From positions 3,478,432 through 3,542,431 of the forward strand of contig OY762722.1 in the NCBI GenBank assembly GCA_963666305.1: a DNA stretch of 64,000 nt. The letters are read 5' to 3'. The position numbers and the translations under genes are program-made. Below, piece by piece: positions 16,114 through 47,198 of this stretch. The stretch's first letter is position 1. The number at the start of each line of letters is the position of its first letter. A model generated the notes under the pieces. That model worked only from the letters and a program-made list of their open reading frames with translations, was not told the DNA's origin and searched no databases. The stretch comes from Candidatus Poribacteria bacterium. Its GTDB lineage: Bacteria > Poribacteria > WGA-4E > WGA-3G.

Positions 16114-16430
16114 ATTCACTTTCTGGGCATACACGGTTTTTGGAGGTTGTAAAGGTTATTATAATAACTTAAGCGTGCCTTGTCAAATTGCTGCGTCTGA
16201 AAGGTTTAACGATGGGTCTACAAAGCGCGTTTACAGAACAGGAAAGGCGTGCTTTCTAAGTACGTCTACAGCGGGTATGGTTGAATTAAGAACTAACCCA
16301 AGTTGCTATCTTCTGATCATGAGGATACCCACTATCACTGCCTCCACGGAGTATTACAAATAGTCCAGGTAGGAGTGAAAGGATTACGTATCGCATCTGT
16401 ATCTCCTTGGTATTGTGGGTACATTCGTGC

Positions 16431-17440: not shown

Positions 17441-20400
17441 TTATTCATCAAGGTTGAACCGCAGGACACCACGATTCGCGGTGCCGACATACAGTATGTT
17501 ACCATCAACAGTGAAAGAGATAACAGAGCCTGGAATTTCGGGTGTTGCCTGTTTCCATGTATTGGAATCCTCTTTCAAGAGATACACGTGTTGATTGGTC
17601 TGTCCATACACCGTTGTGCCCTCCGCTGCTAATCGGGAGACGACGAGAGATTTACCTTCAGCATCGGTTGTGACGTGCCAGTGCGTACTGTCGTTTGAAT
17701 ACGCAACACCTGTGTCGGTTGCCACATAAACGGTTGGTCCCGCGAAGGCGATCGCCTTGAATTTCTCAAAAGAGAACGGGATACCTACAGTAACATCGTT
17801 CCAGGTGTCTCCTTCATCAAACGATTGAAAGAGGTGTCCCTCCCGTTTTCCGACGTAAACAGTACTGCCCGACACGGCGATTTTGAAGCCCATAGAAGTA
17901 ATTGAATCATGAGCAGTAGCAACATCAGCGGAATAACTGTCAGGAGAGGACAATAGAGATGCGAAAGAGTCTTCGCCTGTATCTACTAACCCCGTGTTAT
18001 GCCACTCACTCATACCCGGTTTCCATCTATAAAGCGTCTTCCCGTATTCCACATAGTAGGTATCGCTACTCACGGCAAAGTTTCCAATAAACGCCATCAT
18101 ACTTGCTGAAGCTTGTTCTTGCATAACCTTATTCATGGTTTCATTTAACTGCTCAAAATCAATATCTTCGGGATTTGGTGGTTCGCCCTTTTCAAGGTTT
18201 TGCTTAGCCTTGTCCGTAAACGCTTGCATCATAATTTCGTCCATTTCTATGCGTATTTCCTGTGAATTGATACTTTCAAAAGCGGGCATACCCTCTATAA
18301 ACGCCATGCTATTGTCCTCGGTGGATAGACGAGCTATCGGCGAAGGCGAAGCCATATGATTCCCTCTCTTTACATACAAAGTATCGTCAAATGCTTCAAT
18401 AAGGACACCGGCGTCAATACCACGGGGAAGCGGGGTCCACGATTCACCCTTGTCTGCTGAGAAGACAAATCCATTTGTTGAATTTGCGTAGAGTTTATCG
18501 TTAACAGTGATGAGCGTCTGAACCGGAATACCAACGAGCCCGCTATTAAACGGATACCACGATTTGCCACCATCAATTGTGCACTGAACCCCGGACGGTC
18601 CTCCTTTGTAGAAAGTGTTTTCGTTCATCATCAGCATAGGTGGCGGCACGTTGTAACCTGACCCACCATTTACATTTAAGGCAGTCCAGGTTTCTCCGGT
18701 ATTCATGGAGTAGAAAAGTTCTCCAAACGCATCTACGACTGTAACTTTTCCCTGTGTTGCGAAGAGTTTGATACTCGGCATATAGATTTCTGTTGATTCT
18801 GCACCAGGAAATGGGAAACTTATCCCAAATTGTCCGCCTTGCTGCTTCTCTTCTCCACCCTCCTGTCTTTTCCGTGGATCTATGGAGTACCACGTATCGC
18901 CTTGATCTGTTGAGCGGTAAAGCGACCACTCATCATTCCCTGTCAGCGAAGATTTAAATTGCATCCCGATCTGATTCTGATTTGTCAGTTCGTCCCCCAC
19001 GGCAGCATAGAGACGATGTTCATCGACTGCTAAGGCATGGATGGCTGATTTGTTTTCGGACATTTCTGCTGGACGGATGGTCAATCTTTCCCATGTATCT
19101 GTGTTGAAACGATAGAGTCCACTGTCAGTCCCAGCAAACAGGGCGTTTTCAATGGCGGCGATTGCACGAATTTTTCGATCCGCGAGGTTCTCGTCATTCA
19201 GAGGTATCCACGACTTGCCGGTGTCCACAGAACGAAATATCCCTCCAATGAGAGCAAGATTCAGAGTCATATCGGCTTCTGCCCCAGGTCCCCTATCTGT
19301 TATGACCATGCCAACCGGCTGCCCTTTTGGGTGCGCACCGAGCGAAGTCCATGTCTCACCATCATCTGTAGAAGTCAATACCTCCCCATTGGTAGCGACG
19401 TAGAGCGTCCCGTCCCTCTCTACCATCTGTTGTGTGCCGCCCATCATCCAATCTTTCAGACTGAGTGATGTTGGACTTCCAGCGATGACGAGTTTCCATG
19501 AATGTCCGTCGTCTGCCATCTTATAAAAATTGGTGGAGGTTCCGGCGAAAATGTCTCCACGCGTTGTCGTGAAGAGGGTATTGACAAGCCCCCCTGCGGG
19601 TCCCTTTGTTTGTATCCACTGCGATTTCGGTGTTGAAACCTCAGTTTCATCGACAAGTGCCGCGGCGAAGAGCCTCGCATCCGGTTGCTGACCGGCACCG
19701 GGATTCTTACCGGGGACAGCCGACGTTCCTATCTGATTCCGCACTGCAGGTTTCGCAGGTGAATCTACGACCAAAATCGCCTCGATCAGATCAACCGTCC
19801 GTTCCGATGTAGCGTTTAGGTCGTAAGGTTTCTGGAAACGGGAGAGATACTGTGTGCCAGCCCCCATCAATAGGAAAATCAATACAGCCGAAGCAGCAGA
19901 AAGCACCCAAGGGATCACAGGTTTATTTGCAGTCGGTGGAGTCGGAGTGATACGTGAGACCTCGTTCATAATGTTCTGTGTTAAGTTAGCAGGCAGTTCA
20001 AAACTGTTGAGATTTTGTTGAATCATGTCTTCTTCCTTCATTAGACGATTACGAGCGCGGCTGAGCCGACTCTTAACAGTATTTGGAGATACACCGAGAA
20101 ACTCAGAAATGGCTTTGATTGTCAGTTCCCCAAGGTAGTAAAGCGTCATTACTGTGCGTTCGCTTTCTGGCAGTTTCTGAAGTAGTTTCTTAACAACTTC
20201 ACGGCGCGTTTCATCCGCTTCGGCTGCCTGTTTCTCTGCTACGTATCGAGAGTATGACACTTCATTCACCTCACTCATATCCGTAACTTCTAAAGATTGT
20301 TCCGGTGGCGGATTCTTTCGGAACCAGTCAGAACACAAATTTGCCGCAATGACATAAAGCCAGCCTGGAAACTGGTTATAGTTTTTCAAGGTACCCAGTT

Positions 20401-20575
20401 TCTGGTATGCCCTAAGAAACGCGTCCTGCGTAACTTCCTGTGCGATGTGAAAATCGCCGATCTTCCGCCACACCAGCGCGTGAACCCTTTTCTGGTATTT
20501 CGTGACTAAGGGACTGAATGCGTCCTGATCGCCTTGTAATACCCGTTGAATGAGTTCAGCATCGTTGTATTCCAT
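17441..20575 (-). CDS. Fused ECF sigma factor - TM helix - Asp-box (BNR) beta-propeller protein, paralog 1 (1044 aa)
   Basis: Sigma-70 region 2 is DFHIAQEVTQDAFLRAYQKL...WLYVIAANLC. The region 4 HTH is TVMTLYYLGELTIKAISEFLGVSPNTVKSRLSRARNRL. A single TM helix is VIPWVLSAASAVLIFLLMGAG. Seven or more SxDxGxTW Asp-boxes follow (STDDGETW, SVDTGKSW, STDQGDTW, SMNTGETW, TIDGGKSW, SADKGESW, SFDEGDTW). Confidence 0.8.
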   Translation of the reverse strand: MEYNDAELIQRVLQGDQDAFSPLVTKYQKRVHALVWRKIGDFHIAQEVTQDAFLRAYQKLGTLKNYNQFPGWLYVIAANLCSDWFRKNPPPEQSLEVTDMSEVNEVSYSRYVAEKQAAEADETRREVVKKLLQKLPESERTVMTLYYLGELTIKAISEFLGVSPNTVKSRLSRARNRLMKEEDMIQQNLNSFELPANLTQNIMNEVSRITPTPPTANKPVIPWVLSAASAVLIFLLMGAGTQYLSRFQKPYDLNATSERTVDLIEAILVVDSPAKPAVRNQIGTSAVPGKNPGAGQQPDARLFAAALVDETEVSTPKSQWIQTKGPAGGLVNTLFTTTRGDIFAGTSTNFYKMADDGHSWKLVIAGSPTSLSLKDWMMGGTQQMVERDGTLYVATNGEVLTSTDDGETWTSLGAHPKGQPVGMVITDRGPGAEADMTLNLALIGGIFRSVDTGKSWIPLNDENLADRKIRAIAAIENALFAGTDSGLYRFNTDTWERLTIRPAEMSENKSAIHALAVDEHRLYAAVGDELTNQNQIGMQFKSSLTGNDEWSLYRSTDQGDTWYSIDPRKRQEGGEEKQQGGQFGISFPFPGAESTEIYMPSIKLFATQGKVTVVDAFGELFYSMNTGETWTALNVNGGSGYNVPPPMLMMNENTFYKGGPSGVQCTIDGGKSWYPFNSGLVGIPVQTLITVNDKLYANSTNGFVFSADKGESWTPLPRGIDAGVLIEAFDDTLYVKRGNHMASPSPIARLSTEDNSMAFIEGMPAFESINSQEIRIEMDEIMMQAFTDKAKQNLEKGEPPNPEDIDFEQLNETMNKVMQEQASASMMAFIGNFAVSSDTYYVEYGKTLYRWKPGMSEWHNTGLVDTGEDSFASLLSSPDSYSADVATAHDSITSMGFKIAVSGSTVYVGKREGHLFQSFDEGDTWNDVTVGIPFSFEKFKAIAFAGPTVYVATDTGVAYSNDSTHWHVTTDAEGKSLVVSRLAAEGTTVYGQTNQHVYLLKEDSNTWKQATPEIPGSVISFTVDGNILYVGTANRGVLRFNLDE

Positions 20576-22543: not shown

Positions 22544-24370
22544 TCAAACGTACCATTGTGCTTGTGCTCTGAAGAACTGGGCATAAAGCCGATCTTTTGC
22601 AAGTAGCGTCTCGTGGTCTCCGTCTTCGACGATTCTGCCCTTATCAAGGACGAGGATCCGGTCACAGGTTCGGACAGAAGAGAGACGGTGTGAAATTAGC
22701 ACGGATGTGCGCCCGGCACTCCGTTCAATGAATCGTTCGTAAACTGCCTGTTCAGCGAGCGGATCGAGCGCGGCAGTCGGTTCATCAAGCACGACCAGCC
22801 ATGGGGTCTCTCGCATGAAACTCCGGGCTGTTGCGAGTCGTTGCCATTCACCACCGGAGAGATCGCGTCCGCCGAAGGTGGGACCGAGGATTGTTTCATA
22901 ACCGTCTGTGAGTCCGTCAACAACCGAAGCTGCACCACCAGCGATAGATGCCGTTTCCATACGTTCCGGATGTTCAAGGTCACCGAAGATAACGTTATCA
23001 CGTGCGGTAAGGTGGTACTGCGTAAAGTCTTGGAAGACCGCACTACAATGCATCAACCACGCTCGACGGTTTTCATCTGTGAGTGGCATATCTCCTATGT
23101 GGACTATTCCCGTCTGTGGGCGGTAGAGTCCTAAGAGTAAACGCGCCAGAGTGGTTTTCCCCGCGCCATTGGGTCCAACGATTGCGACCCGTTCCCCTTT
23201 TCTCAACGTCAGCGTTATGTTATTTAACGTGGGTTCTTGCGTATTTGGGTAGAAAAACGATATATTTTCTATCGCAATGTTTTGAATTGAATTGTTTTCA
23301 TCTAATTCATCTGTTTTCCGAGAGTGTTTCTCTACTGCAGCTGCATCGCGCCCTAAAAATTGATACAAATCGCCGGACAAACGGTGCATCTGACTCCCTA
23401 TCAACTGAAAATATCCCGCCACTTCATTCCAGATACCGTCCAGTTGGACGAGTGCAGCGGCAGCGGCGATATAGGTGCCGACGGTGAGTCCACCCTGAAA
23501 GATCTCAAGCAATAATAAAATGAGTGAGCCGGCGTATAATAATCCACGGACGATGTCAATCGCAAGATGTGCAAAGAATTTACGGCGTTCAATCCTTTGT
23601 TGTCCGTGTATGAGGGTCTGCGATAACTGTTTCCAGCGGTTTATCCATAAGTCTTGAGTTTGGTATAATCGAACCTCTTTGCCGGTGCCACGATCGGTGA
23701 GGATCCCTTCTAATGCATCTTTCTCCCGACGTTGCGAGGTCTGCTCGACATCAAAGTTGTAACTATCCACAGCGAAACGCGAATCGCTCCACCAAGAGAT
23801 CATACCCGTGAAGGCGGGCAGCAAAACCAATAATGGATGATAACGCCATAACACGATGCCCAGCGTTACAACGCTGATGAATTGTTGGAGGCTATCAATA
23901 AGCCACCAGAGGATATTCTCAAGGTCTAACCCGGAAACCGAACGCGCTCGCTCAAGGGCATTTTGAAATTCAGAGGTCTGGAATTCGATAAGTTCTGTGG
24001 TGTCAGCTTTTTCAAGGATGCGCGCATTCAGCCAGATTTCAATGTTTTCTCTGACACGGATATGGAGCGGTTGGCTTAACTGATTGGCAAGGGTGATAAA
24101 AATGCGTAAGCCAAGCAGCCCTATCAACCACGGAACGACTTGCCGCCACCAGTTCGTATCACCGACAGCATCAGTGATGGCATTGACGAGGTGTTCGGTT
24201 ACAAAGAACTCACCAGCGGGGACAATACCGAGCGATAGTGTGAGTAATATCATCCCCAAAAGCGCGAGTGAACCGCTTTGCCAAACCACTCCAAAAGTTC
24301 GGAAGTAGGCGAATAGACTTTCCTTCGCAGCTGAGCTCCATGTTTTCCATTTTCCTTTAGTGTTTGACAT
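22544..24370 (-). CDS. ABC exporter, fused TMD-NBD half-transporter (subunit 1 of a probable heterodimer)
   Basis: Six TM-like segments precede Walker A GPNGAGKTT, the signature LSGGEWQRLATAR, and Walker B VVLDEPTAALD. The C-terminal LYAQFFRAQAQWYV resembles that of the neighbouring gene. Confidence 0.8.
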   Translation of the reverse strand: MSNTKGKWKTWSSAAKESLFAYFRTFGVVWQSGSLALLGMILLTLSLGIVPAGEFFVTEHLVNAITDAVGDTNWWRQVVPWLIGLLGLRIFITLANQLSQPLHIRVRENIEIWLNARILEKADTTELIEFQTSEFQNALERARSVSGLDLENILWWLIDSLQQFISVVTLGIVLWRYHPLLVLLPAFTGMISWWSDSRFAVDSYNFDVEQTSQRREKDALEGILTDRGTGKEVRLYQTQDLWINRWKQLSQTLIHGQQRIERRKFFAHLAIDIVRGLLYAGSLILLLLEIFQGGLTVGTYIAAAAALVQLDGIWNEVAGYFQLIGSQMHRLSGDLYQFLGRDAAAVEKHSRKTDELDENNSIQNIAIENISFFYPNTQEPTLNNITLTLRKGERVAIVGPNGAGKTTLARLLLGLYRPQTGIVHIGDMPLTDENRRAWLMHCSAVFQDFTQYHLTARDNVIFGDLEHPERMETASIAGGAASVVDGLTDGYETILGPTFGGRDLSGGEWQRLATARSFMRETPWLVVLDEPTAALDPLAEQAVYERFIERSAGRTSVLISHRLSSVRTCDRILVLDKGRIVEDGDHETLLAKDRLYAQFFRAQAQWYV

Positions 24371-24385
24371 CGGAAACCTCTCTTT

Positions 24386-26227
24386 TTATTGATACCAATG
24401 TGCCTGTGCTCTGAAAAATTGGGCATAAAGCCCATTTCTGGCGATCAGTGCTTCATGTGTCCCATCTTCAATGATACGACCCGCATCCAGGACCAAAATA
24501 CGGTCGGCGAGACGCGCCGATCCGATACGGTGTGAAATCAGGAACGTCATACGTCCGGCGGCGAGTTCAACAAAACGTTGATAGAGTTCGACTTCAGCTT
24601 GCGGGTCTAAGGCAGCGGTCGGTTCGTCAAGCACAAGGACTTGCGGGTTTCGGACCAAAGCCCGGGCAACCGCGACTTTTTGCCATTCACCGCCAGATAA
24701 CTCGGCACCTTCACCCTCTTCACCGAGCGACGGGTCGAGAAACGTATCTAAACCGCGGGGAAAGGTTTGAAAACGCTCGTCAAGACCGACTTCATTGATG
24801 ACGCGCCGAAGTGTATCATCGTCAATGTGAAAGTCCGCGGGACCGGGGACCAATTCTTCTCGCACAGGTCTACGAAATCGCGCAAAATCCTGAAAAACAG
24901 CAGCACAGTTCAGCGCGATCTGTTCGGGCGCAATTGAAGCAACGTTTTTGCTATCATAGTGGATCGTCCCATCATCCGGCTGATACAAACCGAGCAGCAA
25001 TTTGATGAGTGTTGACTTGCCTGCACCGTTGGCACCGACGATGCTGACGATCTCCCCGGGGCGTACATGCAAGTTTATGTCTTGTAGCACATCATCTGCT
25101 GCTTCTGGGTATCGGAAGCGTAGATTATGAACCTCTATACCATCTTGTAGGGGTTGTGGAAATGTCTCGGTTCCTGCCTGTGTATGTGCCTTTTCTGCAC
25201 GTTCCAAGAAGGAATGCAAGTCACGCAGCATCGGCAAATCCTCAAATATGGCTTGGATCTGAGAAAGAATCGCCTCCAAATTGCCTTGAAAACTTGCTGC
25301 CGCACCGGTAAGAACGACATAATCTCCAAGCGTGAGGTTGCCATCAACAATACGGGATGCGAGTATGGCAATTGCGATAGCATAGGCAAGAATTTCGGCG
25401 ATAGTTGTGCCGATAGCACCTTTTGCCTGTGTCCAAATCTTTGCAAGCGATTCTTCCTTCCATTTCTGGTGGTTCGTTCGCCAGCGTCTGAAAAGATGAT
25501 CGAAAAGTCCATAAAGCCGGACTTCCTGTCCAGAAGAAGTACCGAGCAATAAACCGAGCATGTAAGCCATCATACGGCGGACGGGGGTCGCATCGTAGTC
25601 ATGAATGTACCCACTCTCGGCTGTTTTAACTTTGAGCCAAGCGGAAGGGATTGCGGGTAAGACGACGACAAGCACGAGCAGCGGGTCAGCGATCCAGAGG
25701 AGCACTCCGTAACCAACGAGCGTTATGCAGAGTTGTCCGATCTCTGTTAGAAAGCGCAAGAGGTTGGTTAACCGGTGTCCGAGAGCCTGTCGTGCCCGTT
25801 GTATCAAATCGTAAGTCTGCGGCTGATCAAAAACGGCAAAATCGATATGCGTTGCGGCTTCAATCAAGGCATGCTGTTGATGGAGCTCAATGCGGTTCTG
25901 CATTTTCCATCGCAAGTAACTGTCCCAAGTGCCAGCAAGGTTTCTGAGAATCGCCAAAAGCACAAGAGCGATCACCCAAGGTGCTGCGGTCTGTAGACTC
26001 GGCTCTGTTTCGTTTGCGAGAATAGCAGCGATGAGATTCACCAATCCTCGACTCGCCCAGAGGACACCTATAGGGATACACCCGTGGACGAGTGTAAGGA
26101 GTGCCTGTGCGATGGCACCGAACGGACTGGCGTGCCACGCGACGAGACAAAAACGACGTAGCGTTTTGATCGCCGACGGACGCGATTCGGATTCTGTGTT
26201 GGGGATTTGAGAATTATTGGAAACCAT
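24386..26227 (-). CDS. ABC exporter, fused TMD-NBD half-transporter (subunit 2)
   Basis: Walker A is GANGAGKST, the signature is LSGGEWQKVAVAR, and Walker B is LVLDEPTAALD. It is tandem with 22544..24370. Confidence 0.8.
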   Translation of the reverse strand: MVSNNSQIPNTESESRPSAIKTLRRFCLVAWHASPFGAIAQALLTLVHGCIPIGVLWASRGLVNLIAAILANETEPSLQTAAPWVIALVLLAILRNLAGTWDSYLRWKMQNRIELHQQHALIEAATHIDFAVFDQPQTYDLIQRARQALGHRLTNLLRFLTEIGQLCITLVGYGVLLWIADPLLVLVVVLPAIPSAWLKVKTAESGYIHDYDATPVRRMMAYMLGLLLGTSSGQEVRLYGLFDHLFRRWRTNHQKWKEESLAKIWTQAKGAIGTTIAEILAYAIAIAILASRIVDGNLTLGDYVVLTGAAASFQGNLEAILSQIQAIFEDLPMLRDLHSFLERAEKAHTQAGTETFPQPLQDGIEVHNLRFRYPEAADDVLQDINLHVRPGEIVSIVGANGAGKSTLIKLLLGLYQPDDGTIHYDSKNVASIAPEQIALNCAAVFQDFARFRRPVREELVPGPADFHIDDDTLRRVINEVGLDERFQTFPRGLDTFLDPSLGEEGEGAELSGGEWQKVAVARALVRNPQVLVLDEPTAALDPQAEVELYQRFVELAAGRMTFLISHRIGSARLADRILVLDAGRIIEDGTHEALIARNGLYAQFFRAQAHWYQ

Positions 26228-26377: not shown

Positions 26378-29209
26378 CTACTCCTGGATCGAGATGTGGA
26401 ACATGCCATGGTCGTGCGTACCGACGTAGAGTCGATTGTTACTGATAGCGAGAGACATAATAAAACTCCTGGGAACCTCTGCGGAAAGCAGTGCCCAGTC
26501 TTCGTAAGCATCTAAGCGGTAGGCACCGCCATCACCGACACCGTAGATTGTAGTGCCGTCTATAGCGAGTTTCTCTATGACAGTGGGCATCTGTTTTTTA
26601 TCAGTGATGGTCTGCCAGTGTTCTCCAGTTTTTGAGATCAAGACACCTTTATCGGTCGCGATGCAAACAGTTGACCCTAAGAAGATAATGTCTTTGAAAT
26701 GGGTAAAACGGATTGGCAGTATTGACGTGATGTCTTTCCAACTCTCTCCGCTGTCAAGGGATTGAAACAATTTTCCGTTGGTTTTACCTGCATAGACGGT
26801 ATCGCCAGAAGCCATCAAGGTAGATGTGAAACCGATATCGACAAGTCCTGTGTCCGTCCATTGCGGATCACCGGGTTTCCACTTGAAAAGACGCTCCTTG
26901 TATCCAGCGAAAAAAGTCTCACGACTGACAGCGAAGGATTCAATTCTCACGTGTCTTTTTCTCAGTAGATACAACATATATGCTGAGGTATCGCCATCGT
27001 CTGGTGCGGTCTCGGCTTCAAAACTCGGGACACCGTGGACGGGAATGAGTTCATCGCCCGTAGGGGATGTGCGGAAAATACGCGGTTTGTTCTCCTCAAT
27101 TGAAATGGCATAGAATTGATTATCGGCAATCGTTAGTTTGATGTGATCATAGAAATCGCCATCCAATTTGGGGGACTGCTCGTGGGTATTGAAACGAACA
27201 CTTTCCCAAGTTTCGCCGCCATCTGTTGACTGGACGAGGTCGCCCCCGATATGCATATAGAATCTGTGAGTGAGGGTGATCAGGTCGTAAGTTGCGGGAC
27301 CTGTCATCCCGTTCACAAATGGATGCCAGGTCTCACCGGCATCGGTTGTGCGGCTGATCCCGAATATGTCAACTTTGTAAAATGTATTCTCATCGGCAGC
27401 GACGGCTGGGAATCTCGACACGCCAAATGCGTTGAGGTTATCTCTAAGCGATGTCCAAGTTTTCCCCGCATCCGTGGATCGAAATTCGGAGATTCCGAGG
27501 ATTAGGAGCGTTTTCCCTGCCGCCAAGACCTGTATTGCGGCATCAAGGTTCATAACCTCGGGTTTATTTGTTGGTGTTATTTCAGTCCATGAGGTGCCGG
27601 CATCTGCGGAGTGGAAGACTCTCTTAGGCACGTAGCCGCCCAAAGAGCCTCCTTGACCGATTTTCGCGGATGCGAAATCGCGTGTTATTCCGACATAGAG
27701 GTTGTTCTCGTCGACAGTCAGGGTGTAAACAGCGTCCGATGCCTCTGTGAGTGCTTGCTTCCATTTGCTTGAATCGAGGCGATAGAGACCTTGGTTGGTG
27801 CCAGCGAATAAGGTGTTTCCGACGGCGGCGAGGGTATAAATCCATTTCTCTGTCAATCCGGTGTTGAGGGGCATCCAATGCTTACCGGTATCGGTAGATC
27901 GGAAGATGCCTTTCTCTTGAAGGGCGAGGGACAGGATGAGAGCTTCTTTCTCGGGTGCCTCGGTGACGATGAGTCCATTTGCGATGCCCTTTGGACGGGA
28001 GCCAAGGGCGTTCCATGTCTCACCCCCGTTTTCTGAAGCCAACACTTCATCAGCGGAGACGGTATAGAGGGTGCCTTGGTGCTCGGTGATAGGGATTCGG
28101 TACTGTCCAATAGGGATGTCAGCGTTAAGAAGCACCCATGTCGCGTCGGGTGTCAATTTATAGAGCCCTGTTTTTGCGGCAGCGTAGAGGGTTGCGTCAG
28201 CGGCTTCAAAGATATTGAAGACAATACTGCCTGTGGGGCCGATTGCCTGTGTCCATTGTGAATCCTCACCCGTGTCGGTGTCGTCCGATGCGTTTGCGGT
28301 GAAGTGAGGCTCGGAGGTTTGCATACCGGCACCGCTGTTTTTACCGGGCGCGATCGTTCTACCGATCTGGTTCCGCACTGCGGGTTTGGCGAGAATCTCA
28401 AGGTAGATGGGTTCATCAACGATTTCAATGGTAGGCTCAGCGTCGGCATCGAAACTGTATGGCACCTGAAACCGGAGGAGATATTGACCCCCGATGCCGA
28501 AGAGGATCGCCAAGACGGCTACGGCACCGAGCGTTGCCAAAGGGAGTAAGGGTTTCTTAGACGGCGGTGGCGCGGTTGGGCTCAGTTCGGCAATATGTCG
28601 CATAACATTCTCAGTGAGACTGTCGGGGAATTGGAAACTGCCAAGATTCTGCTGAATTACCTCTTCCTCTTTCCGTAGACGGTTGCGTGCGCGGCTCAAA
28701 CGACTCTTAACGGTATTCGGGGAGACACCGAGAAACTCACTGATGGCTTTGATTGTCATCTCGCCCAGGTAATGGAGCGTCATCACTGTGCGTTCACTTT
28801 CCGGCAGTTTTTGGAGCAGTTGCTTGACGATTTCACGGCGCGTGTCATCGGCTTCAGATTTCTGTTGGTCTGTTACATACTGAGAATATGATGCCTTATC
28901 CACCTCACTTGAATCGGCAGTATCGAGGGATTCCATAGATATGCGGTTCTTTCGGAGCCAATCGAGGCACAAGTGTGCTACGATCACATAAAGCCATCCT
29001 GCAAACGCGTTCGGGTTCTTTAAGGTCCCCAGTTTTTGATACGCCCTGAGAAAAGCGTCCTGCGTGATTTCTTGGGCGATGTGAAAATCGCCGATCTTCC
29101 GCCACGCAAGCGCGTGAATCCCTTTCTGATATTTTTTCACCAAAGGACTGAATGCGTCCTCGTCCCCTTGTAATACTCGTTGAATGAGTTGAGCATCGCT
29201 CTGTTGCAT
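26378..29209 (-). CDS. Fused ECF sigma factor - TM - Asp-box beta-propeller protein, paralog 2 (943 aa)
   Basis: The N-terminal region (MQQSDAQLIQRVLQGDEDAFSPLVKKYQKGIHALAWRKIGDFHIAQEITQDAFLRAYQKL) is near-identical to the other paralogs. The HTH is TVMTLHYLGEMTIKAISEFLGVSPNTVKSRLSRARNRL. One TM helix is present. The Asp-boxes are SENGGETW, STDTGKHW, SADAGTSW, STDAGKTW, TTDAGETW, STDGGETW, SLDSGESW. Confidence 0.8.
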   Translation of the reverse strand: MQQSDAQLIQRVLQGDEDAFSPLVKKYQKGIHALAWRKIGDFHIAQEITQDAFLRAYQKLGTLKNPNAFAGWLYVIVAHLCLDWLRKNRISMESLDTADSSEVDKASYSQYVTDQQKSEADDTRREIVKQLLQKLPESERTVMTLHYLGEMTIKAISEFLGVSPNTVKSRLSRARNRLRKEEEVIQQNLGSFQFPDSLTENVMRHIAELSPTAPPPSKKPLLPLATLGAVAVLAILFGIGGQYLLRFQVPYSFDADAEPTIEIVDEPIYLEILAKPAVRNQIGRTIAPGKNSGAGMQTSEPHFTANASDDTDTGEDSQWTQAIGPTGSIVFNIFEAADATLYAAAKTGLYKLTPDATWVLLNADIPIGQYRIPITEHQGTLYTVSADEVLASENGGETWNALGSRPKGIANGLIVTEAPEKEALILSLALQEKGIFRSTDTGKHWMPLNTGLTEKWIYTLAAVGNTLFAGTNQGLYRLDSSKWKQALTEASDAVYTLTVDENNLYVGITRDFASAKIGQGGSLGGYVPKRVFHSADAGTSWTEITPTNKPEVMNLDAAIQVLAAGKTLLILGISEFRSTDAGKTWTSLRDNLNAFGVSRFPAVAADENTFYKVDIFGISRTTDAGETWHPFVNGMTGPATYDLITLTHRFYMHIGGDLVQSTDGGETWESVRFNTHEQSPKLDGDFYDHIKLTIADNQFYAISIEENKPRIFRTSPTGDELIPVHGVPSFEAETAPDDGDTSAYMLYLLRKRHVRIESFAVSRETFFAGYKERLFKWKPGDPQWTDTGLVDIGFTSTLMASGDTVYAGKTNGKLFQSLDSGESWKDITSILPIRFTHFKDIIFLGSTVCIATDKGVLISKTGEHWQTITDKKQMPTVIEKLAIDGTTIYGVGDGGAYRLDAYEDWALLSAEVPRSFIMSLAISNNRLYVGTHDHGMFHISIQE

Positions 29210-30967: not shown

Positions 30968-32392
30968 TCAGATATCGGAACGGAAGAATTTTAGGAACGC
31001 CACTGCCGTAAACGCTAAAGCAAAAAAACCGAGTAAGCACACATCTACTGCAGAGCGACGCAAGGTATCCGATAAAGAAGGTTCCGTCACGGTTGGTGGT
31101 GGTGGAATTTCTTCTGATTCGGAAAGATTATTCCGCTGTCGATCCATTATTTGTACGACCTGTGCCATCACGTCGTCTGAAATTCCACTGAAATATGAAT
31201 CATCAAGTTGCTTGTAGTATCTCTCACCCGTTTGAAAGTAGGTGTCCCTTTTTAGTTTACCGGTTTGCGTTAAGTTTATCGCAGAATAGATGAGAGAGGA
31301 CGTTGGCACGAGCCGAGAGAGCACTTCTCCAATGTGCTCTTGGCGATCCTTTTCGCGTTGGTATCCGTTGTCAATTTTGTTTGCCTGATTCTGGAACTTC
31401 AGTCGAGATTCCTCGTTAATCGGTTTCCGAATCTTGTCCAATCTTTTTTGCACCTCTGGTGTTATCGCCAAATTCGTCCCAAAAATTTCAAATATTTTTT
31501 TATTCAACTTCTCTTGTTTCTCTTTCGCCAGGTTATTGCGAAGTGCGGTTTTTTCCATATAAACAGTCTGCTGCGTTCGGGTGGGTGAGACGAGTTTTGC
31601 TACGATAAACGCCCCTCGTGGTGCAATTAGCACCGCAAACACCCAAAATGTAAAAGCGACAATCAGCGCGGTCTTGGCGTTGTCGAGATACGTTGAAATG
31701 ACGACACCTATCGCAAAAAAGACCGCAATATAGAGCAGCGAGACAAGCGTTAGACCGAGCACTGGCATCGCGATCTTGAGCTCACCGAGTGGAAACCCTT
31801 GCCAGACGATCAGGAGTAACCCCAAAAGGAAAGAGACTAAAAACGGAAGAACGAACACAATGTATCCACCGATCAGCTTGCTCCACAAAAACACATCTCG
31901 AGGAACGGGGTTTGACAAGTTTATCCGAAGGGTGCCTGCTTCTCTCTCCCCCGCAACAGCATCAAATGTGAACAGAAGTGCCAGCAGACTGAAAACCGTC
32001 CCAACAATAAACAGGAAGTCCAGATTTCCTAATACATACGCGAGCGGTGCTTGCGCAAGTGCTGTTGAACCCGGCCGAATGCCATTACGCGTCATTCCAA
32101 GATGGGTCGGCAGCACTTCCTCTAAACCGTTTGCGAAGACGCTCAGCGGCATGGGCTTGAGGAAAAGCTTGGAAACTTCTACATCCGGATCTTGCGCATT
32201 CGGTGGATTTACCTTTGCTTCTGATCGTGAGCGATTCACCGATTCTTGATAATCTGTCAAACTCTGACGATGCTTGCGATAACTGATAGAAAGGGTGAGT
32301 GGGATGAGCAAAGCACACATCAGCAAGAGCGCGATGAACCGGACGCTCAAAATGTGGTGCATAATTTCTTTCTGAATCAATGTTATTAACAC
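30968..32392 (-). CDS. ABC-2 family transporter permease (orphan paralog of 41254..42696)
   Basis: Its N-terminus (MLITLIQKEIMHHILSVRFIALLLMCALLIPLTLS) is almost identical to that of 41254..42696. It has a large extracytoplasmic loop and then five TM segments. There is no adjacent ATPase gene. Confidence 0.65.
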   Translation of the reverse strand: MLITLIQKEIMHHILSVRFIALLLMCALLIPLTLSISYRKHRQSLTDYQESVNRSRSEAKVNPPNAQDPDVEVSKLFLKPMPLSVFANGLEEVLPTHLGMTRNGIRPGSTALAQAPLAYVLGNLDFLFIVGTVFSLLALLFTFDAVAGEREAGTLRINLSNPVPRDVFLWSKLIGGYIVFVLPFLVSFLLGLLLIVWQGFPLGELKIAMPVLGLTLVSLLYIAVFFAIGVVISTYLDNAKTALIVAFTFWVFAVLIAPRGAFIVAKLVSPTRTQQTVYMEKTALRNNLAKEKQEKLNKKIFEIFGTNLAITPEVQKRLDKIRKPINEESRLKFQNQANKIDNGYQREKDRQEHIGEVLSRLVPTSSLIYSAINLTQTGKLKRDTYFQTGERYYKQLDDSYFSGISDDVMAQVVQIMDRQRNNLSESEEIPPPPTVTEPSLSDTLRRSAVDVCLLGFFALAFTAVAFLKFFRSDI

Positions 32393-32431: not shown

Positions 32432-32566
32432 TTAGTCGTCTAATTTAAAACGTAACACACCACTACCATAGGTGCCAACATAAAGCACGTTCCCCTCAAC
32501 ATCGAGAGCACTAACAGGACTCGGAATCTCGGGTGTCATCTGTTTCCATCTGTCAGAATTTGTTTT
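32432..32566 (-). other. In-frame continuation encoding the conserved C-terminal tail of the fused-sigma family, located after the TAA stop of 32567..35392
   Basis: It translates to KTNSDRWKQMTPEIPSPVSALDVEGNVLYVGTYGSGVLRFKLDD*. This is collinear with the tails of paralogs 1 and 4 (...NTWKQATPEIPGSVISFTVDGNILYVGTANRGVLRFNLDE). Confidence 0.6.
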
Positions 32567-35392
32567 TTATTGATAGACGCGTTGTTCCGTAACGCCATAC
32601 AGAGTTGTTCCGCTCACCGCAAATTGGTCTATAACGATTGGCACACCTTCAGGGTCGGATGTAACGTGCCAGTGCGTGCCATCGCTTGAATATGCAACCC
32701 CTCCATCGGTTGCCACGTAGATAGCGGAGCCAGCGAATTCTATTGCCTTGAAATGTGTAAAAGAAAACGGAAGTTCGCCCGTAACATCGTTCCACGTATC
32801 TCCTTCGTCAAACGACTGGAAGAGGTGTCCGTCTAATTTAGCGACGTAGACAGTTCTCCTTGAAACAGCGATTTTGAAACCGATGGAACTGGGATTGTTA
32901 AAACTGCCAACCGTATCAATGAGTTCACCTTCATCTATGAGCCCGGTATCAACCCATTCCGGCGTGCCGGGTTTCCACCTGAAGAGTCTCTGTTCATATT
33001 CCATATAGTACGTATTACGACTGACAGCGAAACCTCCGAGAAGTCCACGCATCAGCTGCCGGATATCTTCCACGGCCTTATTGTCATCTCCAGCAACATC
33101 CACATCTAAAGAGGCGTTTTTCCTTAAAAACGACATCCCCGGAATAGGGCTTAACCGATCGTCCTCGGTAGATAAGCGCAAGAGTTGAACGCGATGTTCG
33201 GTGTCTCCTATACCTCTGGCATAGAGCAGATCGTTGAATTTCGCCAGATTCGTGATGTTTCCGAGGCTGCTTGGGACAGGTGTCCACACCTCATCCCCCT
33301 TGGACGAGGCGAGAAGTTCGCCCCCCACATTGGCATACAGCACATTCCGCACAGAAACTAAATTCATCACGCTTGTATTTACCAATCCCGTGCTAAATGG
33401 ATGCCACGTTTTGCCGGCATCGGTTGTGCGATAAATCCCAGACGCTCCGTTCCGATAGAAGGTATTCGCATTCAAAGACACAAGCTTGGAAACATCTCTT
33501 ATGTCTGGTATATTTGAATCCAAGGTAACCCAGTTTTCACCTGCGTCACTTGAGTAATAACTGCCTTTATCGTCCATTGCGAAAAGGCTTTCTTCCACTG
33601 CTACCATTTTGAAGGTTGAAGTCGTTTTCGTTTCTGAGTCTTTGGGTTTATCCTTACCCTTTTGGTAGGATTCCGAAGTTCCAGAAGCAACATGAATCGT
33701 CAGTCCATCTTGGGAGGATGGCTCTATTTTCCTTTTTATAAAGTCTAATGTCTGCCACGAATCTCCCAAATCTGTTGAGCGATATAGGGACAGAGATGTC
33801 GCGGATATCAGTCGCGCTGGCAGACCAAACCCGACCCCTTGATTCACAGCCTTTTCCCCCACGGCGACATAGAGTCGATGCTCGGCACTCGCCACTGCAC
33901 GGATATTCTGGGATTCACCCACCGATAATAAGGTGCTGCCTTCCGAATTGAGGCGATACAGTCCAGAGTCCGTCCCAACAAACACAACATTTTCAACGGC
34001 TGTGATTGCGCGAATTTCTTTCTTCACCAACTGTCCGCTTACGGACACCCACGAGTTACCAGCGTCCACAGAACGGAATACACCATTAACAAGTGCCAAG
34101 TACATTACAATATTGGCTTGCGCCCCAGGTGCTTCATCTGTTATGACGAGATCAATCAACTGACCCACTGGACGTGTACCGAGTGTATCCCACGTCTCGC
34201 CTCTGTCCATTGAAGCGCGGATTTCTGTATCGGAGGCAACGTAGAGGGTATCGTCCGTCTCTATTATTTGCCATGATCCGTTAGGGGGCATGTTGGCGTT
34301 GACAAGGTTCCACCGACTTCTATCGTCCGTCAATCTATAGAGGTCGGTACCTGTCCCGACGTAAGAATCTCCGTTAGCTGCGATGAACAAGTTCTGAACG
34401 CCGCCACCTTCGGGTCCCCCGGTTTGGGTCCACTGCGGTTTCGGGGTTGAGACTTCTGTCGTGTCGATGGGGAGTGTGGCAACAAGGGATTCGTCCGGTT
34501 TCTGAGCTGCCCCAGGACTTTTACCGGGGAGTGCCGAACTTCCTGCCTGAGTCCGCACTGCGGGTTTCGCAGGGAAATCGTAAATAAAAACTGCGTCAAT
34601 AATCTTAACTGTCGGTTCCGAGGTGGCATCAAGGTTATAAGGCTTCTGAAAACGAGAGAGATGCTGCGTGCCAATCCCAATCAGTAGGAAAAGCACGACG
34701 GCTGAGACAACGGAAAGTGCCAACGGGACTACCGGCTTACCTGTAGGAACAGAAACCGGACTCAGACGTGAAACTTCCCGCATGATGTTCTCTGTTAATT
34801 GATCCGGGAGTTGGAAACTGCCAAGATTCTGATGGAGTATATCTTTCTCTTTTCGTAAACGGTTGCGAGCGCGGCTCAGGCGGCTTTTGATGGTATTCTG
34901 GGAGACACCGAGAAACTCAGAAATGGATTTGACCGTCATCTCGCCAAGGTAATGGAGCGTCATCACTGTCCGCTCGCTTTCGGGCAGTGTCTGGAGGAGC
35001 TTCTTAACGACTTCACGGCGCGTCTCATTGGCTTCGGCTGCCTGTTTTTCTGCTATATACTGAGAATATGAAACCCTGTCTATCTCATTAGTCTCGGTAG
35101 CCTCTACGGATTCCAGCACCGGCATGCGATTCTTTCGGAACCAGTCAGCACACAAGTTTGCCGCAATAACGTAGAGCCAACCTGAGAACTGGTTATGGTT
35201 TTTCAAGGTTCCGAGTTTTTTATACGCAGTGAGAAACGCGTCTTGCGTGATTTCTTGGGCAATATGAAAATCACCGATCTTCCGCCACACCAGCGCGTGA
35301 ACCCCTTTCTGATATTTTTTCACTAAGGTACTGAATGCCTCCTGGTCCCCCTGTAATACCCGCCAAATGAGTTGAGCATCGTTTTGTTCCAC
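32567..35392 (-). CDS. Fused ECF sigma factor - TM - Asp-box beta-propeller protein, paralog 3 (941 aa as called, GTG start; ends at an in-frame TAA)
   Basis: The N-terminus is (V/M)EQNDAQLIWRVLQGDQEAFSTLVKKYQKGVHALVWRKIGDFHIAQEITQDAFLTAYKKL. The HTH is TVMTLHYLGEMTVKSISEFLGVSQNTIKSRLSRARNRL. A TM helix and Asp-boxes (SMDRGETW, SVDAGNSW, STDLGDSW, SSDAGENW, TTDAGKTW, SFDEGDTW) follow. A GGAGGAGG RBS lies 6 nt upstream of the GTG. Confidence 0.75.
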   Translation of the reverse strand: MEQNDAQLIWRVLQGDQEAFSTLVKKYQKGVHALVWRKIGDFHIAQEITQDAFLTAYKKLGTLKNHNQFSGWLYVIAANLCADWFRKNRMPVLESVEATETNEIDRVSYSQYIAEKQAAEANETRREVVKKLLQTLPESERTVMTLHYLGEMTVKSISEFLGVSQNTIKSRLSRARNRLRKEKDILHQNLGSFQLPDQLTENIMREVSRLSPVSVPTGKPVVPLALSVVSAVVLFLLIGIGTQHLSRFQKPYNLDATSEPTVKIIDAVFIYDFPAKPAVRTQAGSSALPGKSPGAAQKPDESLVATLPIDTTEVSTPKPQWTQTGGPEGGGVQNLFIAANGDSYVGTGTDLYRLTDDRSRWNLVNANMPPNGSWQIIETDDTLYVASDTEIRASMDRGETWDTLGTRPVGQLIDLVITDEAPGAQANIVMYLALVNGVFRSVDAGNSWVSVSGQLVKKEIRAITAVENVVFVGTDSGLYRLNSEGSTLLSVGESQNIRAVASAEHRLYVAVGEKAVNQGVGFGLPARLISATSLSLYRSTDLGDSWQTLDFIKRKIEPSSQDGLTIHVASGTSESYQKGKDKPKDSETKTTSTFKMVAVEESLFAMDDKGSYYSSDAGENWVTLDSNIPDIRDVSKLVSLNANTFYRNGASGIYRTTDAGKTWHPFSTGLVNTSVMNLVSVRNVLYANVGGELLASSKGDEVWTPVPSSLGNITNLAKFNDLLYARGIGDTEHRVQLLRLSTEDDRLSPIPGMSFLRKNASLDVDVAGDDNKAVEDIRQLMRGLLGGFAVSRNTYYMEYEQRLFRWKPGTPEWVDTGLIDEGELIDTVGSFNNPSSIGFKIAVSRRTVYVAKLDGHLFQSFDEGDTWNDVTGELPFSFTHFKAIEFAGSAIYVATDGGVAYSSDGTHWHVTSDPEGVPIVIDQFAVSGTTLYGVTEQRVYQ

Positions 35393-35747: not shown

Positions 35748-36347
35748 CTATTGTAGGTAGGGGAGCAGCAGAGTCTGGAGTCTTTGACGGGCATGGTGCA
35801 AATATGTTTTAACGGTGCTTTCCGACTTGTCTAAGTGTGAGGCAATCTCTTTTATCGGGAGGTCCTGCAAGTAACGCAAACGAAAAGCGCGACGTTGTCC
35901 AGATGGCAGTCGATGCACAGCACTACGGATAACGCGTCCAAGTTCCTCCTCCTCAAGAATCTGACAAGGTGATGACTGCTTTTGGAGCATCGGGAGGCAA
36001 TCGTCGGCGTTTTGTGGTAATGTCTCACACGCAAAAACGATTTCCCTATCTCGTTTGCGGAGGAAATCAATACTACAATTGACAGCAATTTGGTAAAGCC
36101 AACTATAAAATACGGATTGTCCCTTGAAGTTCGGCAGTGCCTGCCACGCCTTCAAGAACACTTCTTGGCAAAGGTCTTCCGCTGTCTCGCGATCCCGAAC
36201 CTTACGGTAAATCAAATTATAGATTTTTTGCTGATATTTGTATACGAGTGGGTTAAACGCCTCTGTATCGCCATTCTGCGCACGCGCCACAAGTTCCGAC
36301 TCATTGAAATCGTTGCGTTCAGGGTGTATTGTTAAATCACTTCGCAT
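35748..36347 (-). CDS. Stand-alone ECF (RpoE-like) RNA polymerase sigma factor, 199 aa
   Basis: Region 2 is DLCQEVFLKAWQALPNFKGQSVFYSWLYQIAVNCSIDFLRKR. Region 4 is QRRAFRLRYLQDLPIKEIASHLDKSESTVKTYLHHARQRL. No anti-sigma gene is adjacent. Confidence 0.8.
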   Translation of the reverse strand: MRSDLTIHPERNDFNESELVARAQNGDTEAFNPLVYKYQQKIYNLIYRKVRDRETAEDLCQEVFLKAWQALPNFKGQSVFYSWLYQIAVNCSIDFLRKRDREIVFACETLPQNADDCLPMLQKQSSPCQILEEEELGRVIRSAVHRLPSGQRRAFRLRYLQDLPIKEIASHLDKSESTVKTYLHHARQRLQTLLLPYLQ

Positions 36348-44132: not shown

Positions 44133-47100
44133 CTAATTAATTTTAAAACGTAACACACCACTGCCAGCGGTACCGACATAAAGCACGTTCTCCTCAACAG
44201 CAAGAGAGGTAATAGGCATTGGGATTTCCGGGGCAACCTGTTCCCACACACCAGTATTCTCTTTCAATCGATACACGTGTCGCTCGCTTGTCCCATACAG
44301 CGTTGTCCCGCCTATTGCAAACCTTTCTATAAGGATAGGCGCGCCTTCTGTATCCGTTGTTGCGTGCCAGTGAACGCCATCATTGGAGAACGCAACTCCC
44401 TTATCGGTCGCGACATAAACGGTGGATCCTGTAAAGGTTACTCCCTTGAAATGTGCAACAGGAAAGGGGAGGCTCGCCGTAACATCGTTCCACGTATTTC
44501 CCTCATCAAACGATTGGAAGAGATGTCCATCCCATTTACCGACGTAGATAGTACTCCCTGAAACCGCAAGGTTGGAAGGGAGGGAATCAGGATTGTTAGC
44601 GCTGTCAATCATATCGACAGGAAGTTCATTGATGAGTCCGGTATTCACCCATTCAGTTGCGCCGGCTTTCCATCTGAAGAGTCTTTGCTCATACTCCATA
44701 TAGTAAGTATCACCACTGACAGCGAAACCCCCGATAACCGACCTCACAATTTCACCCAGGAGCTCCTCTAAGGCCGGACTATAGTCTTCAACAAATGCCT
44801 CCATATCTAAATCTTCAAGGATATTATCTTCAAGGATGTTTTGCTGTCCGTCAGTCTGGTCTGTTACTGGCAGAATTTCCTTGAAACGTTCTTCCATCAG
44901 CTTGGTATAGTCTGTCTCCTTTAAAAATGGCATACCCGGAACAGACGTTAACCGATTATCCTCGGTAGATAAGCGAAAGAGGCGGGGGTGAGGTGTCGTG
45001 TCGTCTATAGCTCTGGCGTAGAGCAGATCGTTGAATCTCACCAACTGAATAATGTTTCCGAGGCTGCTTGGAACAAGTGTCCATGACTCGCCCGCATTAG
45101 ATGAGGTGAGAAGTGTGCCTCCGACGTTAGCATAGAGCACATTCTGCACAGAAACTAAATTCATCACGGCTGTCTTTACCAATCCAGCGTTAAACGGATG
45201 CCACGTTTTGCCGGTATCGGTTGTGCGATAAATCCCGGACTCTCCGTTCCAATAGAAGGTATTTGCATTCAAAGACACGAGCGTGGAAACATCTCCTATG
45301 CCCGGTATACTTGAATCCAAAGTAACCCAGGTGTCCCCTGCGTCATTTGAATAATAACCGTTTCCGTCGTCCACTACGAAAAGGTTGTCTTCCACTGCTA
45401 CCATTTCAAAGATTAAAGTCGTTTTCGTTTCTGCGTCCTTAGGACTCTCCTTGCCATTTTGGGCGGATTCCGGAGCTGCAGGTTCAACCCGAATCGTCAT
45501 GCTAACTTGGGGGGAAGGCTCTGTTTCTGTTTTTTTGTAGTCTAATGTCTGCCACGAATCTCCCAAATCTGTTGAACGGTACAGGGATAGAGATGCCTTC
45601 CATACTATTCGCGCTGGCAGCCCGAACCCAAAATCCTTGTTCACCACCTTGTCCCCCACGGCAACATAGAGTCGATACCCGGCACTTGCCAGTGCGCGGA
45701 TATTGCGGGTCTTATGGTCTTCATCCACCGGTAATAGCGTCCAATCTTCGGAACTACGGCGATACAGTCCAAAATCGGTCCCAACAAATACGACATCTTC
45801 AATAGTAGTGATTGCGCGGATTTCTTTGTTCACCAACTTCTCGCTTACGGGATCCCATGATTTCCCAGCGTCCACGGAACGGAATACGCCATCAACAAGT
45901 CCCAAGTACATTGTAATATCGGTTTGCTCTCCAGGGATCCCATCTGTTATGACGAGGTCAATCAGCTGTCCTTCTGGACGTGTGCCGAGTGAATTCCACG
46001 TCTCGCCTCTGTCCATTGAAGCGAGGACTTCCGTATCAGAAACAACATAGAGGGTATTCTCATGTTCTGTCATTTGCCATGACCCATTGATGGACATGTT
46101 GCTACTGACAAGCCCCCACCGACTTTTATCGTCCGCCAATCTATAGAGATCGGTATCTGTTCCGGCGTAAGAATCGCCGTTAGCTGCGATGAACAGGTTC
46201 TGCACGCTGCCACCTTCGGGGCCCTTTGTTTGGCTCCACTGAGGTTTGGGTGTTGGGACTTCTGCGGTGTCAATAGGCAGCGTAGCAACAAGGGATTCTT
46301 CGGATTTCTGTCCTTCCCCTGGACTTTTACCGGGGAGCACGGAACTTCCTGCTTGACTCCGTATTGCAGGTTTCGCAGGGGAATCGTAAACAAAAACCGC
46401 GTCAATAATTTCAACCGTCGGTTCCGATGTTGCATCTAAATTGTAAGGCTTCTGAAAACGGGAGAGATATTGCGTGCCAACACCCATCAGCAGGAAAAGC
46501 AAAACAGCCGAAGCCGCAGAAAGTGCCAAGGGTGCCACCGGTTTACTCACTGCAGGTGGCGGAACAGGGGACATACGCGAGACTTCCTGCATGATGTTAT
46601 CCGCTAAGGTATCAGGGAGTTGGAAGCTGCCAAGATTCTCCTGAAGCACGTCTTCCTCTTGCCGCAAACGGTTGCGTGCACGACTGAGTCGGCTCTTGAT
46701 GGTGTTCTGGGACACACCGAGAAACTCGGAAATGGATTTGATTGTCATCTCGCCAAGGTAATGCATCATCATCACCGTCCGCTCACTCTCTGGCAGCTTT
46801 TGGAGCAGTTTCTTGACGACTTCACGCCGTGATTCATCGGCATCGGCTGCCTGTTTTTCTGCTACATATCGAGAATATGACACTTTGTCCACCTCATTCG
46901 TATTGTCGGCATCTAAGGATTCCATCGGTAGGCGATTCTTTTTCAGATAGTCGCGACACAGGTTTGCCGCGATAACATAAAGCCATCCTGCAAATTGGTT
47001 ATGGTTTTTCAATGTTCGGAGTTTCTTATACGCGGTGAGGAACGCGTCTTGCGTAATTTCTTGTGCGATATGAAAATCACCGATCTTCCGCCACGCAAGT

Positions 47101-47198
47101 GTGTGAACCCCTTTCTGATATTTCTTGACCAAAGGACTGAGCGCGTCCTGATCTCCCTGTAGTATACGTTGGATGAGTTCAACATCGGTGTGTGCCAT
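44133..47198 (-). CDS. Fused ECF sigma factor - TM - Asp-box beta-propeller protein, paralog 4 (1021 aa)
   Basis: The N-terminus is MAHTDVELIQRILQGDQDALSPLVKKYQKGVHTLAWRKIGDFHIAQEITQDAFLTAYKKL. The HTH is TVMMMHYLGEMTIKSISEFLGVSQNTIKSRLSRARNRL. A TM helix and Asp-boxes (SMDRGETW, SVDAGKSW, STDLGDSW, SNDAGDTW, TTDTGKTW, SSNAGESW, SFDEGNTW) follow. Confidence 0.8.
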   Translation of the reverse strand: MAHTDVELIQRILQGDQDALSPLVKKYQKGVHTLAWRKIGDFHIAQEITQDAFLTAYKKLRTLKNHNQFAGWLYVIAANLCRDYLKKNRLPMESLDADNTNEVDKVSYSRYVAEKQAADADESRREVVKKLLQKLPESERTVMMMHYLGEMTIKSISEFLGVSQNTIKSRLSRARNRLRQEEDVLQENLGSFQLPDTLADNIMQEVSRMSPVPPPAVSKPVAPLALSAASAVLLFLLMGVGTQYLSRFQKPYNLDATSEPTVEIIDAVFVYDSPAKPAIRSQAGSSVLPGKSPGEGQKSEESLVATLPIDTAEVPTPKPQWSQTKGPEGGSVQNLFIAANGDSYAGTDTDLYRLADDKSRWGLVSSNMSINGSWQMTEHENTLYVVSDTEVLASMDRGETWNSLGTRPEGQLIDLVITDGIPGEQTDITMYLGLVDGVFRSVDAGKSWDPVSEKLVNKEIRAITTIEDVVFVGTDFGLYRRSSEDWTLLPVDEDHKTRNIRALASAGYRLYVAVGDKVVNKDFGFGLPARIVWKASLSLYRSTDLGDSWQTLDYKKTETEPSPQVSMTIRVEPAAPESAQNGKESPKDAETKTTLIFEMVAVEDNLFVVDDGNGYYSNDAGDTWVTLDSSIPGIGDVSTLVSLNANTFYWNGESGIYRTTDTGKTWHPFNAGLVKTAVMNLVSVQNVLYANVGGTLLTSSNAGESWTLVPSSLGNIIQLVRFNDLLYARAIDDTTPHPRLFRLSTEDNRLTSVPGMPFLKETDYTKLMEERFKEILPVTDQTDGQQNILEDNILEDLDMEAFVEDYSPALEELLGEIVRSVIGGFAVSGDTYYMEYEQRLFRWKAGATEWVNTGLINELPVDMIDSANNPDSLPSNLAVSGSTIYVGKWDGHLFQSFDEGNTWNDVTASLPFPVAHFKGVTFTGSTVYVATDKGVAFSNDGVHWHATTDTEGAPILIERFAIGGTTLYGTSERHVYRLKENTGVWEQVAPEIPMPITSLAVEENVLYVGTAGSGVLRFKIN

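Follow-up and report, generated by a model that had tools for sequence, protein, structure and literature searches.

A window-private stop codon near the 3' end of P3

A 64,000-nucleotide stretch of the genome of a sponge symbiont, Candidatus Poribacteria (contig OY762722.1, positions 3,478,432 to 3,542,431; hereafter, the window) contained four copies, P1 to P4, of a gene predicted to fuse an extracytoplasmic function (ECF) sigma factor through a membrane span to a GH74-like double propeller, and the third of these, P3, was interrupted near its 3' end by an in-frame TAA. The TAA allele was private to the window and was absent from every relative compared. The premature stop was neither conserved nor programmed, and the event was of a well-known kind, a nonsense substitution confined to one lineage and to a single member of a multicopy family, and on balance it is probably a genuine and recent mutation. 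The lesion was a substitution, not a length change: a T-to-A transversion at 32568 converted TTA (Leu942) to TAA, at which the ribosome would terminate 45 codons early. When one gene in a set of four paralogs carries a private, 3'-proximal nonsense codon, this is either everyday genome variation or an error of the consensus, and it matters little on its own. The features compared, all on the minus strand of the window, were as follows.

32567..35392, minus: truncated open reading frame (ORF) P3, 941 amino acids (aa), from the ORF list and its translation
32569..32567, minus: premature TAA, codon 942 of P3; TTA (Leu) in the orthologs
32435..32566, minus: orphaned in-frame tail of P3, 44 codons corresponding to residues 943 to 986 of intact orthologs
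32434..32432, minus: ancestral (natural) TAA of P3, in the same end column as in eight orthologous genes
32561..32563, minus: codon 944 of P3, ACA (Thr), with G to A at 32563 as the second change private to the window
17441..20575, minus: intact paralog P1, 1,044 aa, comparator
26378..29209, minus: intact paralog P2, 943 aa, comparator
44133..47198, minus: intact paralog P4, 1,021 aa, comparator
DNA string specific to the TAA allele of P3: TATCAATAAAAAACAAATTC
Peptide from the P3 tail beyond codon 942: WKQMTPEIPSPVSALDVEGNVLYVGTYGSGVLR

The P3 ORF ended in ...GTTLYGVTEQRVYQ followed by the TAA at 32569..32567 (TEQRVYQ-TAA), and the same frame then stayed open for 44 codons, KTNSDRWKQMTPEIPSPVSALDVEGNVLYVGTYGSGVLRFKLDD, up to the TAA at 32434..32432, the column in which the orthologs end with ...RFKLDD/N/G and a stop. 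An open stretch of 44 codons was unremarkable in itself, as 30 to 67 codons were open past the stops of other long ORFs in the window. The resemblance of the tail to other members of the family was not due to chance, because the tail aligned end to end with the C-terminal 43 residues of P4 (27/43 identical, 63%; E = 2e-17) and matched the orthologs at 43/45 positions. An earlier note on this DNA, which was made from the sequence without database searches, had described a stop followed by a conserved tail in the same frame and had attributed it to a single-base change from TTA to TAA that removes 45 residues. The placement of the stop was correct, the tail was homologous to P4 and to the orthologs, and the change of codon was confirmed by the TTA codons of the orthologs; the protein was shortened from 986 aa to 941 aa, a loss of exactly 45 residues, or 4.6%.

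A scan of species-representative genomes yielded eleven loci, all in metagenome-assembled genomes of Candidatus Poribacteria. Loci L001 to L007, of which L007 was a partial gene, were 82 to 92% identical to P3 over the C-terminal region, and all of them read CAA TTA AAA GAA AAT, versus CAA TAA AAA ACA AAT in the window. Two metagenome contigs found in a degenerate-pattern scan, L012 and L013, were 96.7 to 97.0% identical to the window in alignments of 3.8 and 4.6 kb without gaps, and both read CAA TTA AAA GCA AAT. A 5.33-Mb contig, L014, carried an intact P3 ortholog with TTA and the same gene order. In total, TTA was accompanied by the same natural stop in eight orthologous genes (L001 to L006, L013, and L014), and TTA was also present in the partial L007 and the partly covered L012. 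At the protein level, the 90% cluster around P0001 comprised 18 sequences; 14 other members, 94 to 97% identical, had Leu942, 12 of them complete at 986 to 987 aa and two partial (952 and 313 aa). The sole 941-aa member, P0130, was identical to the P3 protein and was encoded on a 5,622,920-bp contig. Every one of the 64 aligned homologs extended 44 to 52 residues past the stop site, and family column 942 was occupied by L in 43, F in 17, W in 3, and S in 1.

The intact paralogs also had Leu in the stop column, encoded by TTG in P1 and P4 and by CTT in P2. The comparison with paralogs on which the earlier note had relied was therefore right about the residue and could not prove a single step; the T-to-A step was confirmed because the orthologs all use TTA, and the paralog codons alone were insufficient. 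The second private change lay 5 nucleotides downstream of the first (32563 and 32568) and converted codon 944, which was GCA (Ala) in the closest relatives and GAA (Glu) in more distant ones, to ACA. This Ala944Thr change looks like an ordinary polymorphism, because residue 944 varies among family members (E53, A5, K2, D1, T1, and M1) and Thr occurs there in another homolog.

From 32637 to 32312, the window and L014 differed at only these two positions. The P3 tail was identical to that of the intact L014 allele at 131/132 nucleotides and contained no further stop or indel, and the gene-wide ratio of nonsynonymous to synonymous substitution (dN/dS) was 0.26 for the window and L013 and 0.30 for the window and L014, versus 0.24 for the intact pair L013 and L014. 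Neither relaxed selection on P3, seen as a rise of dN/dS toward 1, nor secondary lesions were found in comparison with L013 and L014. Because the tail was nearly identical to that of L014 and dN/dS was not relaxed, the lesion is either very recent relative to the approximately 3% divergence from the nearest relatives or not real. A truncation of long standing whose tail has decayed, which the earlier note had named as a finding that would overturn its reading, was excluded. Substitutions in the tail did not date the stop beyond "very recent," as three seemingly private synonymous changes proved to be shared with L014. Gene conversion from another copy was also rejected, since the 18-mer at the stop matched nowhere else in the window, even when two mismatches were allowed.

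Decay of sigma-propeller genes was also observed in other genomes. On contig L018 (ena:ERZ25084387:ctg36588c; 5,889,692 bp), in the gene order NPCBM_assoc protein, OEP, ECF sigma, P3, and ABC-2 permease, the syntenic ortholog of P3 consisted of only the C-terminal 311 residues (4001..4942; 94% identical). Further downstream on the same contig, 6788..6895 encoded a 34-residue N-terminal stub of a P2-like sigma-propeller copy, and the TlpA-like gene and the P2 ortholog were missing. The decay in L018 is real, because a deletion cannot be a base-calling error. In addition, a paralog on L009 (OZ250160.1; 3436..6439), from a different Poribacteria metagenome-assembled genome, had an in-frame TAG at 6199..6201 in place of a conserved TGG (Trp) of an Asp-box (NNGTD*HIP), approximately 80 codons before the conserved C terminus, which was the second independent 3'-proximal premature stop in the family. 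Together, the P3 stop, the remnant left by deletion in L018, and the L009 TAG indicate that the sigma-propeller family of Poribacteria turns over by gene decay. Furthermore, by our base-rate estimate, substitution errors that create a stop should be much rarer per 64 kb of long-read consensus than real segregating nonsense alleles. P3 shares with an ordinary nonsense mutation or incipient pseudogene a disabling single-base lesion, intact copies in the same genome, and decay elsewhere in the family. In contrast, a decaying pseudogene has secondary lesions or relaxed dN/dS, neither of which was present in P3, so the label "pseudogene" is not established.

Predicted architecture of P3 and consequence of the truncation

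Pfam matches assigned the N-terminal part of P3 (residues 6 to 182) to Sigma70_r2 (46.4 bits; cut-off, 24), Sigma70_r4_2 (55.5; cut-off, 25.7), and Sigma70_ECF (24; cut-off, 21.1), and there were no Pfam matches in P3 to sigma region 1 or region 3. By these matches, the sigma part is predicted to be an ECF (group 4) sigma-70 factor, with sigma2 and sigma4 and without sigma1.1 and sigma3. The sigma4 domain ended near residue 182, and a hydrophobic stretch, PLALSVVSAVVLFLLIGIG, at about residues 222 to 241, with a predicted helix at 230 to 239, marked a candidate membrane span near residues 220 to 242. The propeller region extended from approximately residue 330 to 986. It gave a Sortilin-Vps10 match of 40.2 bits (cut-off, 33), and the BNR and PSII_BNR matches were below their own cut-offs. 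Asp-box motifs of the pattern S-x-D-x-G-x-x-W that characterizes BNR/Asp-box beta-propellers were recognized, among them SMDRGETW, SVDAGNSW, STDLGDSW, TTDAGKTW, and SFDEGDTW.

The fold was modeled with AlphaFold2 on P0001, a full-length relative that is 96% identical, with 64 homologs. Residues from approximately 330 to 986 were predicted to be all beta, with predicted local distance difference test (pLDDT) scores mostly of 70 to 90, and the sigma part was poorly modeled. The best Foldseek matches in the PDB were GH74 xyloglucanases (such as 2cn3 and 7kn8), which consist of two tandem seven-bladed propellers (E = 4e-20), followed by periplasmic sensor domains of the Bacteroides hybrid two-component systems BT4663 and BT4673; E values ranged from 4e-20 to 1e-15, at sequence identities of 10 to 15% and TM-scores of only 0.23 to 0.51. 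The predicted outer region of P3 matched by these folds has two tandem propellers with Asp-box repeats; it would be tethered to a sigma factor and not, as in the matched proteins, to an enzyme or a kinase. P3 may thus be a transmembrane signal transducer in a single polypeptide, with a cytoplasmic N-terminal ECF sigma factor, one span, and a GH74-like double propeller outside.

IutY of Pseudomonas putida (ECF243) and SCO4117 of Streptomyces coelicolor (ECF52) likewise join a sigma factor through a membrane span to a C-terminal domain that is large and extracytoplasmic, and on hydrophobicity and the fold model P3 also carries all three elements in one polypeptide. The outer domain differs: a predicted BNR double propeller in P3, versus a FecR-like domain or a carbohydrate-binding module in the IutY/SCO4117 type. 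No anti-sigma family in Pfam (ASD/ZAS or FecR-like) matched P3 at an E value of ≤0.01, although the linker of approximately 40 residues, with one predicted helix, could hold a divergent short domain. The resemblance is one of architecture, and membership of P3 in the class of sigma/anti-sigma fusions is not established.

The 45 lost residues included 8 that were invariant across the 64 homologs (W949, P957, LYVG at 970 to 973, G978, and R981) and 8 more that were at least 90% conserved. Strands were predicted in the lost segment at residues 949 to 950, 960 to 966, 969 to 975, and 978 to 983, with pLDDT scores of 72 to 88, and the stop coincided with the end of the predicted strand at 939 to 942. 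According to the model, the truncation would deprive the C-terminal propeller of its entire last blade, three strands in all, and of the outer strand of the blade before it. Because the closing blade is lost, the propeller would be unable to close, and the extracytoplasmic domain would probably misfold. Loss of P3 function is the likely outcome on this model, and it may be tolerated or buffered by the intact P1, P2, and P4.

Alternative explanations of the TAA codon

The earlier note had offered a recent inactivating mutation, a sequencing error, and stop-codon readthrough as explanations; the first two survived the comparison with relatives, and the third did not. A sequencing or consensus error, in which the organism really has TTA and an intact gene of 986 aa and only the assembled sequence has TAA, is a possibility to be taken seriously, albeit distinctly less probable than a real mutation. 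Several points weigh against a genuine mutation and in favor of this alternative. The TAA allele was seen in one assembly only, and the public 941-aa protein comes from that same assembly and is not an independent observation. The undecayed tail and unchanged dN/dS are what an artifact also predicts. Both private changes turned the bases flanking a run of four A residues into A (T-AAAA-G to AAAAAA), a context that is prone to miscalls, but also to real dislocation mutagenesis. In addition, the window held a second private lesion, 18.5 kb away, of the classic long-read error type, with C5 in place of C6. As to the consequence of the stop, the proposed misfolding and loss of function are drawn from a predicted structure. 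The single multimegabase contigs imply long reads, in which residual errors cluster at homopolymers, and the related assemblies carry contig names in the style of hifiasm-meta or metaMDBG.

An error of this kind is opposed, however, by the form of the lesion, which consisted of two substitutions without a change of length; a compensated pair of homopolymer indels would require at least three events and was rejected as less parsimonious. The gap-free alignments with L012 and L013 showed that the assembly is not generally error-ridden, and one of the two changes fell at the naturally variable position 944. Nearby pairs of substitutions were not unusual in the P3 gene, as three were seen and approximately two were expected for the 35 private changes in the gene; accordingly, the idea that the two changes form one odd clustered event was set aside as not significant; in comparison with L014, two of the three mismatches in approximately 540 nucleotides lay within 5 nucleotides of each other (P of ~0.06).

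The second lesion lay in a TonB-dependent-receptor-like gene (48965..51378, minus) that was split by a -1 frameshift at a C run near 51131..51135 into an 87-aa ORF (51115..51378) and a 693-aa ORF (48965..51046). The window had C5 where three related contigs (L015 to L017) had C6, and the orthologs of the split gene were uninterrupted at 804 aa (95% identity; P0135). The gene features were a signal peptide, CarboxypepD_reg, Plug, and a barrel. Either true slippage in the organism or an error in the consensus at the homopolymer could account for the difference between C5 and C6. The P3 stop and this frameshift mark two sites in the assembly for read-level checking, and the public 941-aa protein is best read as a model of a 986-aa protein that is truncated or possibly wrong.

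A functional and possibly selected truncation, in which a destabilized propeller leads to proteolysis and constitutive release of the sigma domain, a gain of function, appears improbable. The analogy with IutY and SCO4117 speaks for it. C-terminal truncation alters activity in systems of this type: IutY that lacks the greater part of its C-terminal extension is active regardless of signal, and activation by proteolysis has been proposed for SCO4117 and the ECF52 group (PMC8999054). For IutY, the same review describes activation through regulated intramembrane proteolysis. The P3 architecture is of the same kind, a sigma domain linked by a membrane span to an extracytoplasmic domain, and the gene body showed no relaxed selection. 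An unrelaxed dN/dS is equally explained by recency, however; the TAA allele was seen once, with no evidence of selection for it, and the search of P3 for an anti-sigma domain in the segment from sigma4 to the membrane span found none. If such a release did occur, one sigma-propeller regulon of the strain would be permanently on.

Programmed readthrough or recoding of the TAA to yield full-length P3 was the least credible of the explanations and is very improbable. The open frame and the conserved tail were all that supported it, and the site was a sense codon, mostly Leu/TTA, in all orthologs, cluster members, and homologs, so that no stop is conserved there. TAA was also used more often than any other stop codon in the window (15 of the 33 ORFs of ≥250 aa, including P1 and the natural end of P3), and basal readthrough of UAA in bacteria is very low. 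No tRNA genes were found in the window, and no Rfam family matched around the stop and tail at an E value of ≤1. Two further candidates for a role of the tail were rejected. The first was an RNA or regulatory element, for which there was no Rfam match and no promoter-like site; one weak terminator-like match lay upstream within the coding region. The second was separate translation of the tail from an internal ATG (Met952), where the sequence was unchanged from the orthologs and where a peptide of 35 residues that lacks a signal peptide would, we reason, be unable to reach the extracytoplasmic propeller.

The sigma-propeller family and other genes of the window

The sigma-propeller family itself looks to be of more interest than the P3 stop. 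It is large, with at least 120 database matches, all of those listed scoring >1,290 bits and nearly all being 977 to 1,043 aa long with full coverage. The ECF literature searched contained no description of an ECF sigma/double-propeller family and nothing specific on sigma-BNR fusions in Poribacteria. The genes next to P3, and a second permease gene near P4, were as follows.

30968..32392, minus: downstream of P3, ABC-2 permease gene of 474 aa with a GTG start
35748..36347, minus: stand-alone ECF sigma gene, 199 aa, directly upstream of P3
41254..42696: ABC-2 permease gene, 480 aa, paralogous to the first, with one 438-aa gene (no Pfam match) between it and P4

The ABC-2 permease gene normally starts 39 nucleotides after the stop of the sigma-propeller gene and now lies 174 nucleotides after the premature stop; the 39-nucleotide spacing and the GAGGAG ribosome-binding site of the permease gene were also present in the orthologous loci, and synteny around P3 and the permease gene was kept in L014 and L018. 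The two permease genes were approximately 81% identical at the nucleotide level, and their placement, directly after P3 and one gene after P4, suggests that a module of sigma-propeller and permease was segmentally duplicated. P3 stands in the +1 position of the stand-alone ECF sigma gene, where an anti-sigma gene usually sits. This pairing of an ECF sigma gene with P3 was conserved in L014 and L018, and no such neighbor was found at P1, P2, or P4.

Elsewhere in the window, two ATP-binding cassette (ABC) exporter genes (22544..24370, 608 aa, and 24386..26227, 613 aa; minus) lay in the same frame with a TAA and four codons between them; both were full length, so the pair is a normal tandem arrangement and was rejected as a broken gene. 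Two Omp85-superfamily proteins, one of which had an N-terminal DUF4252, were encoded at 8164..10620 and 14110..16134 and flanked tandem paralogs with PA14 domains (10632..11804 and 11806..12960) that were separated by a single base. A 405-aa ORF (62398..63615, minus) had no Pfam match at an E value of ≤0.001, and its C-terminal region contained NQIRNALAHG, which we take to resemble an R-x4-H motif of the HEPN type.

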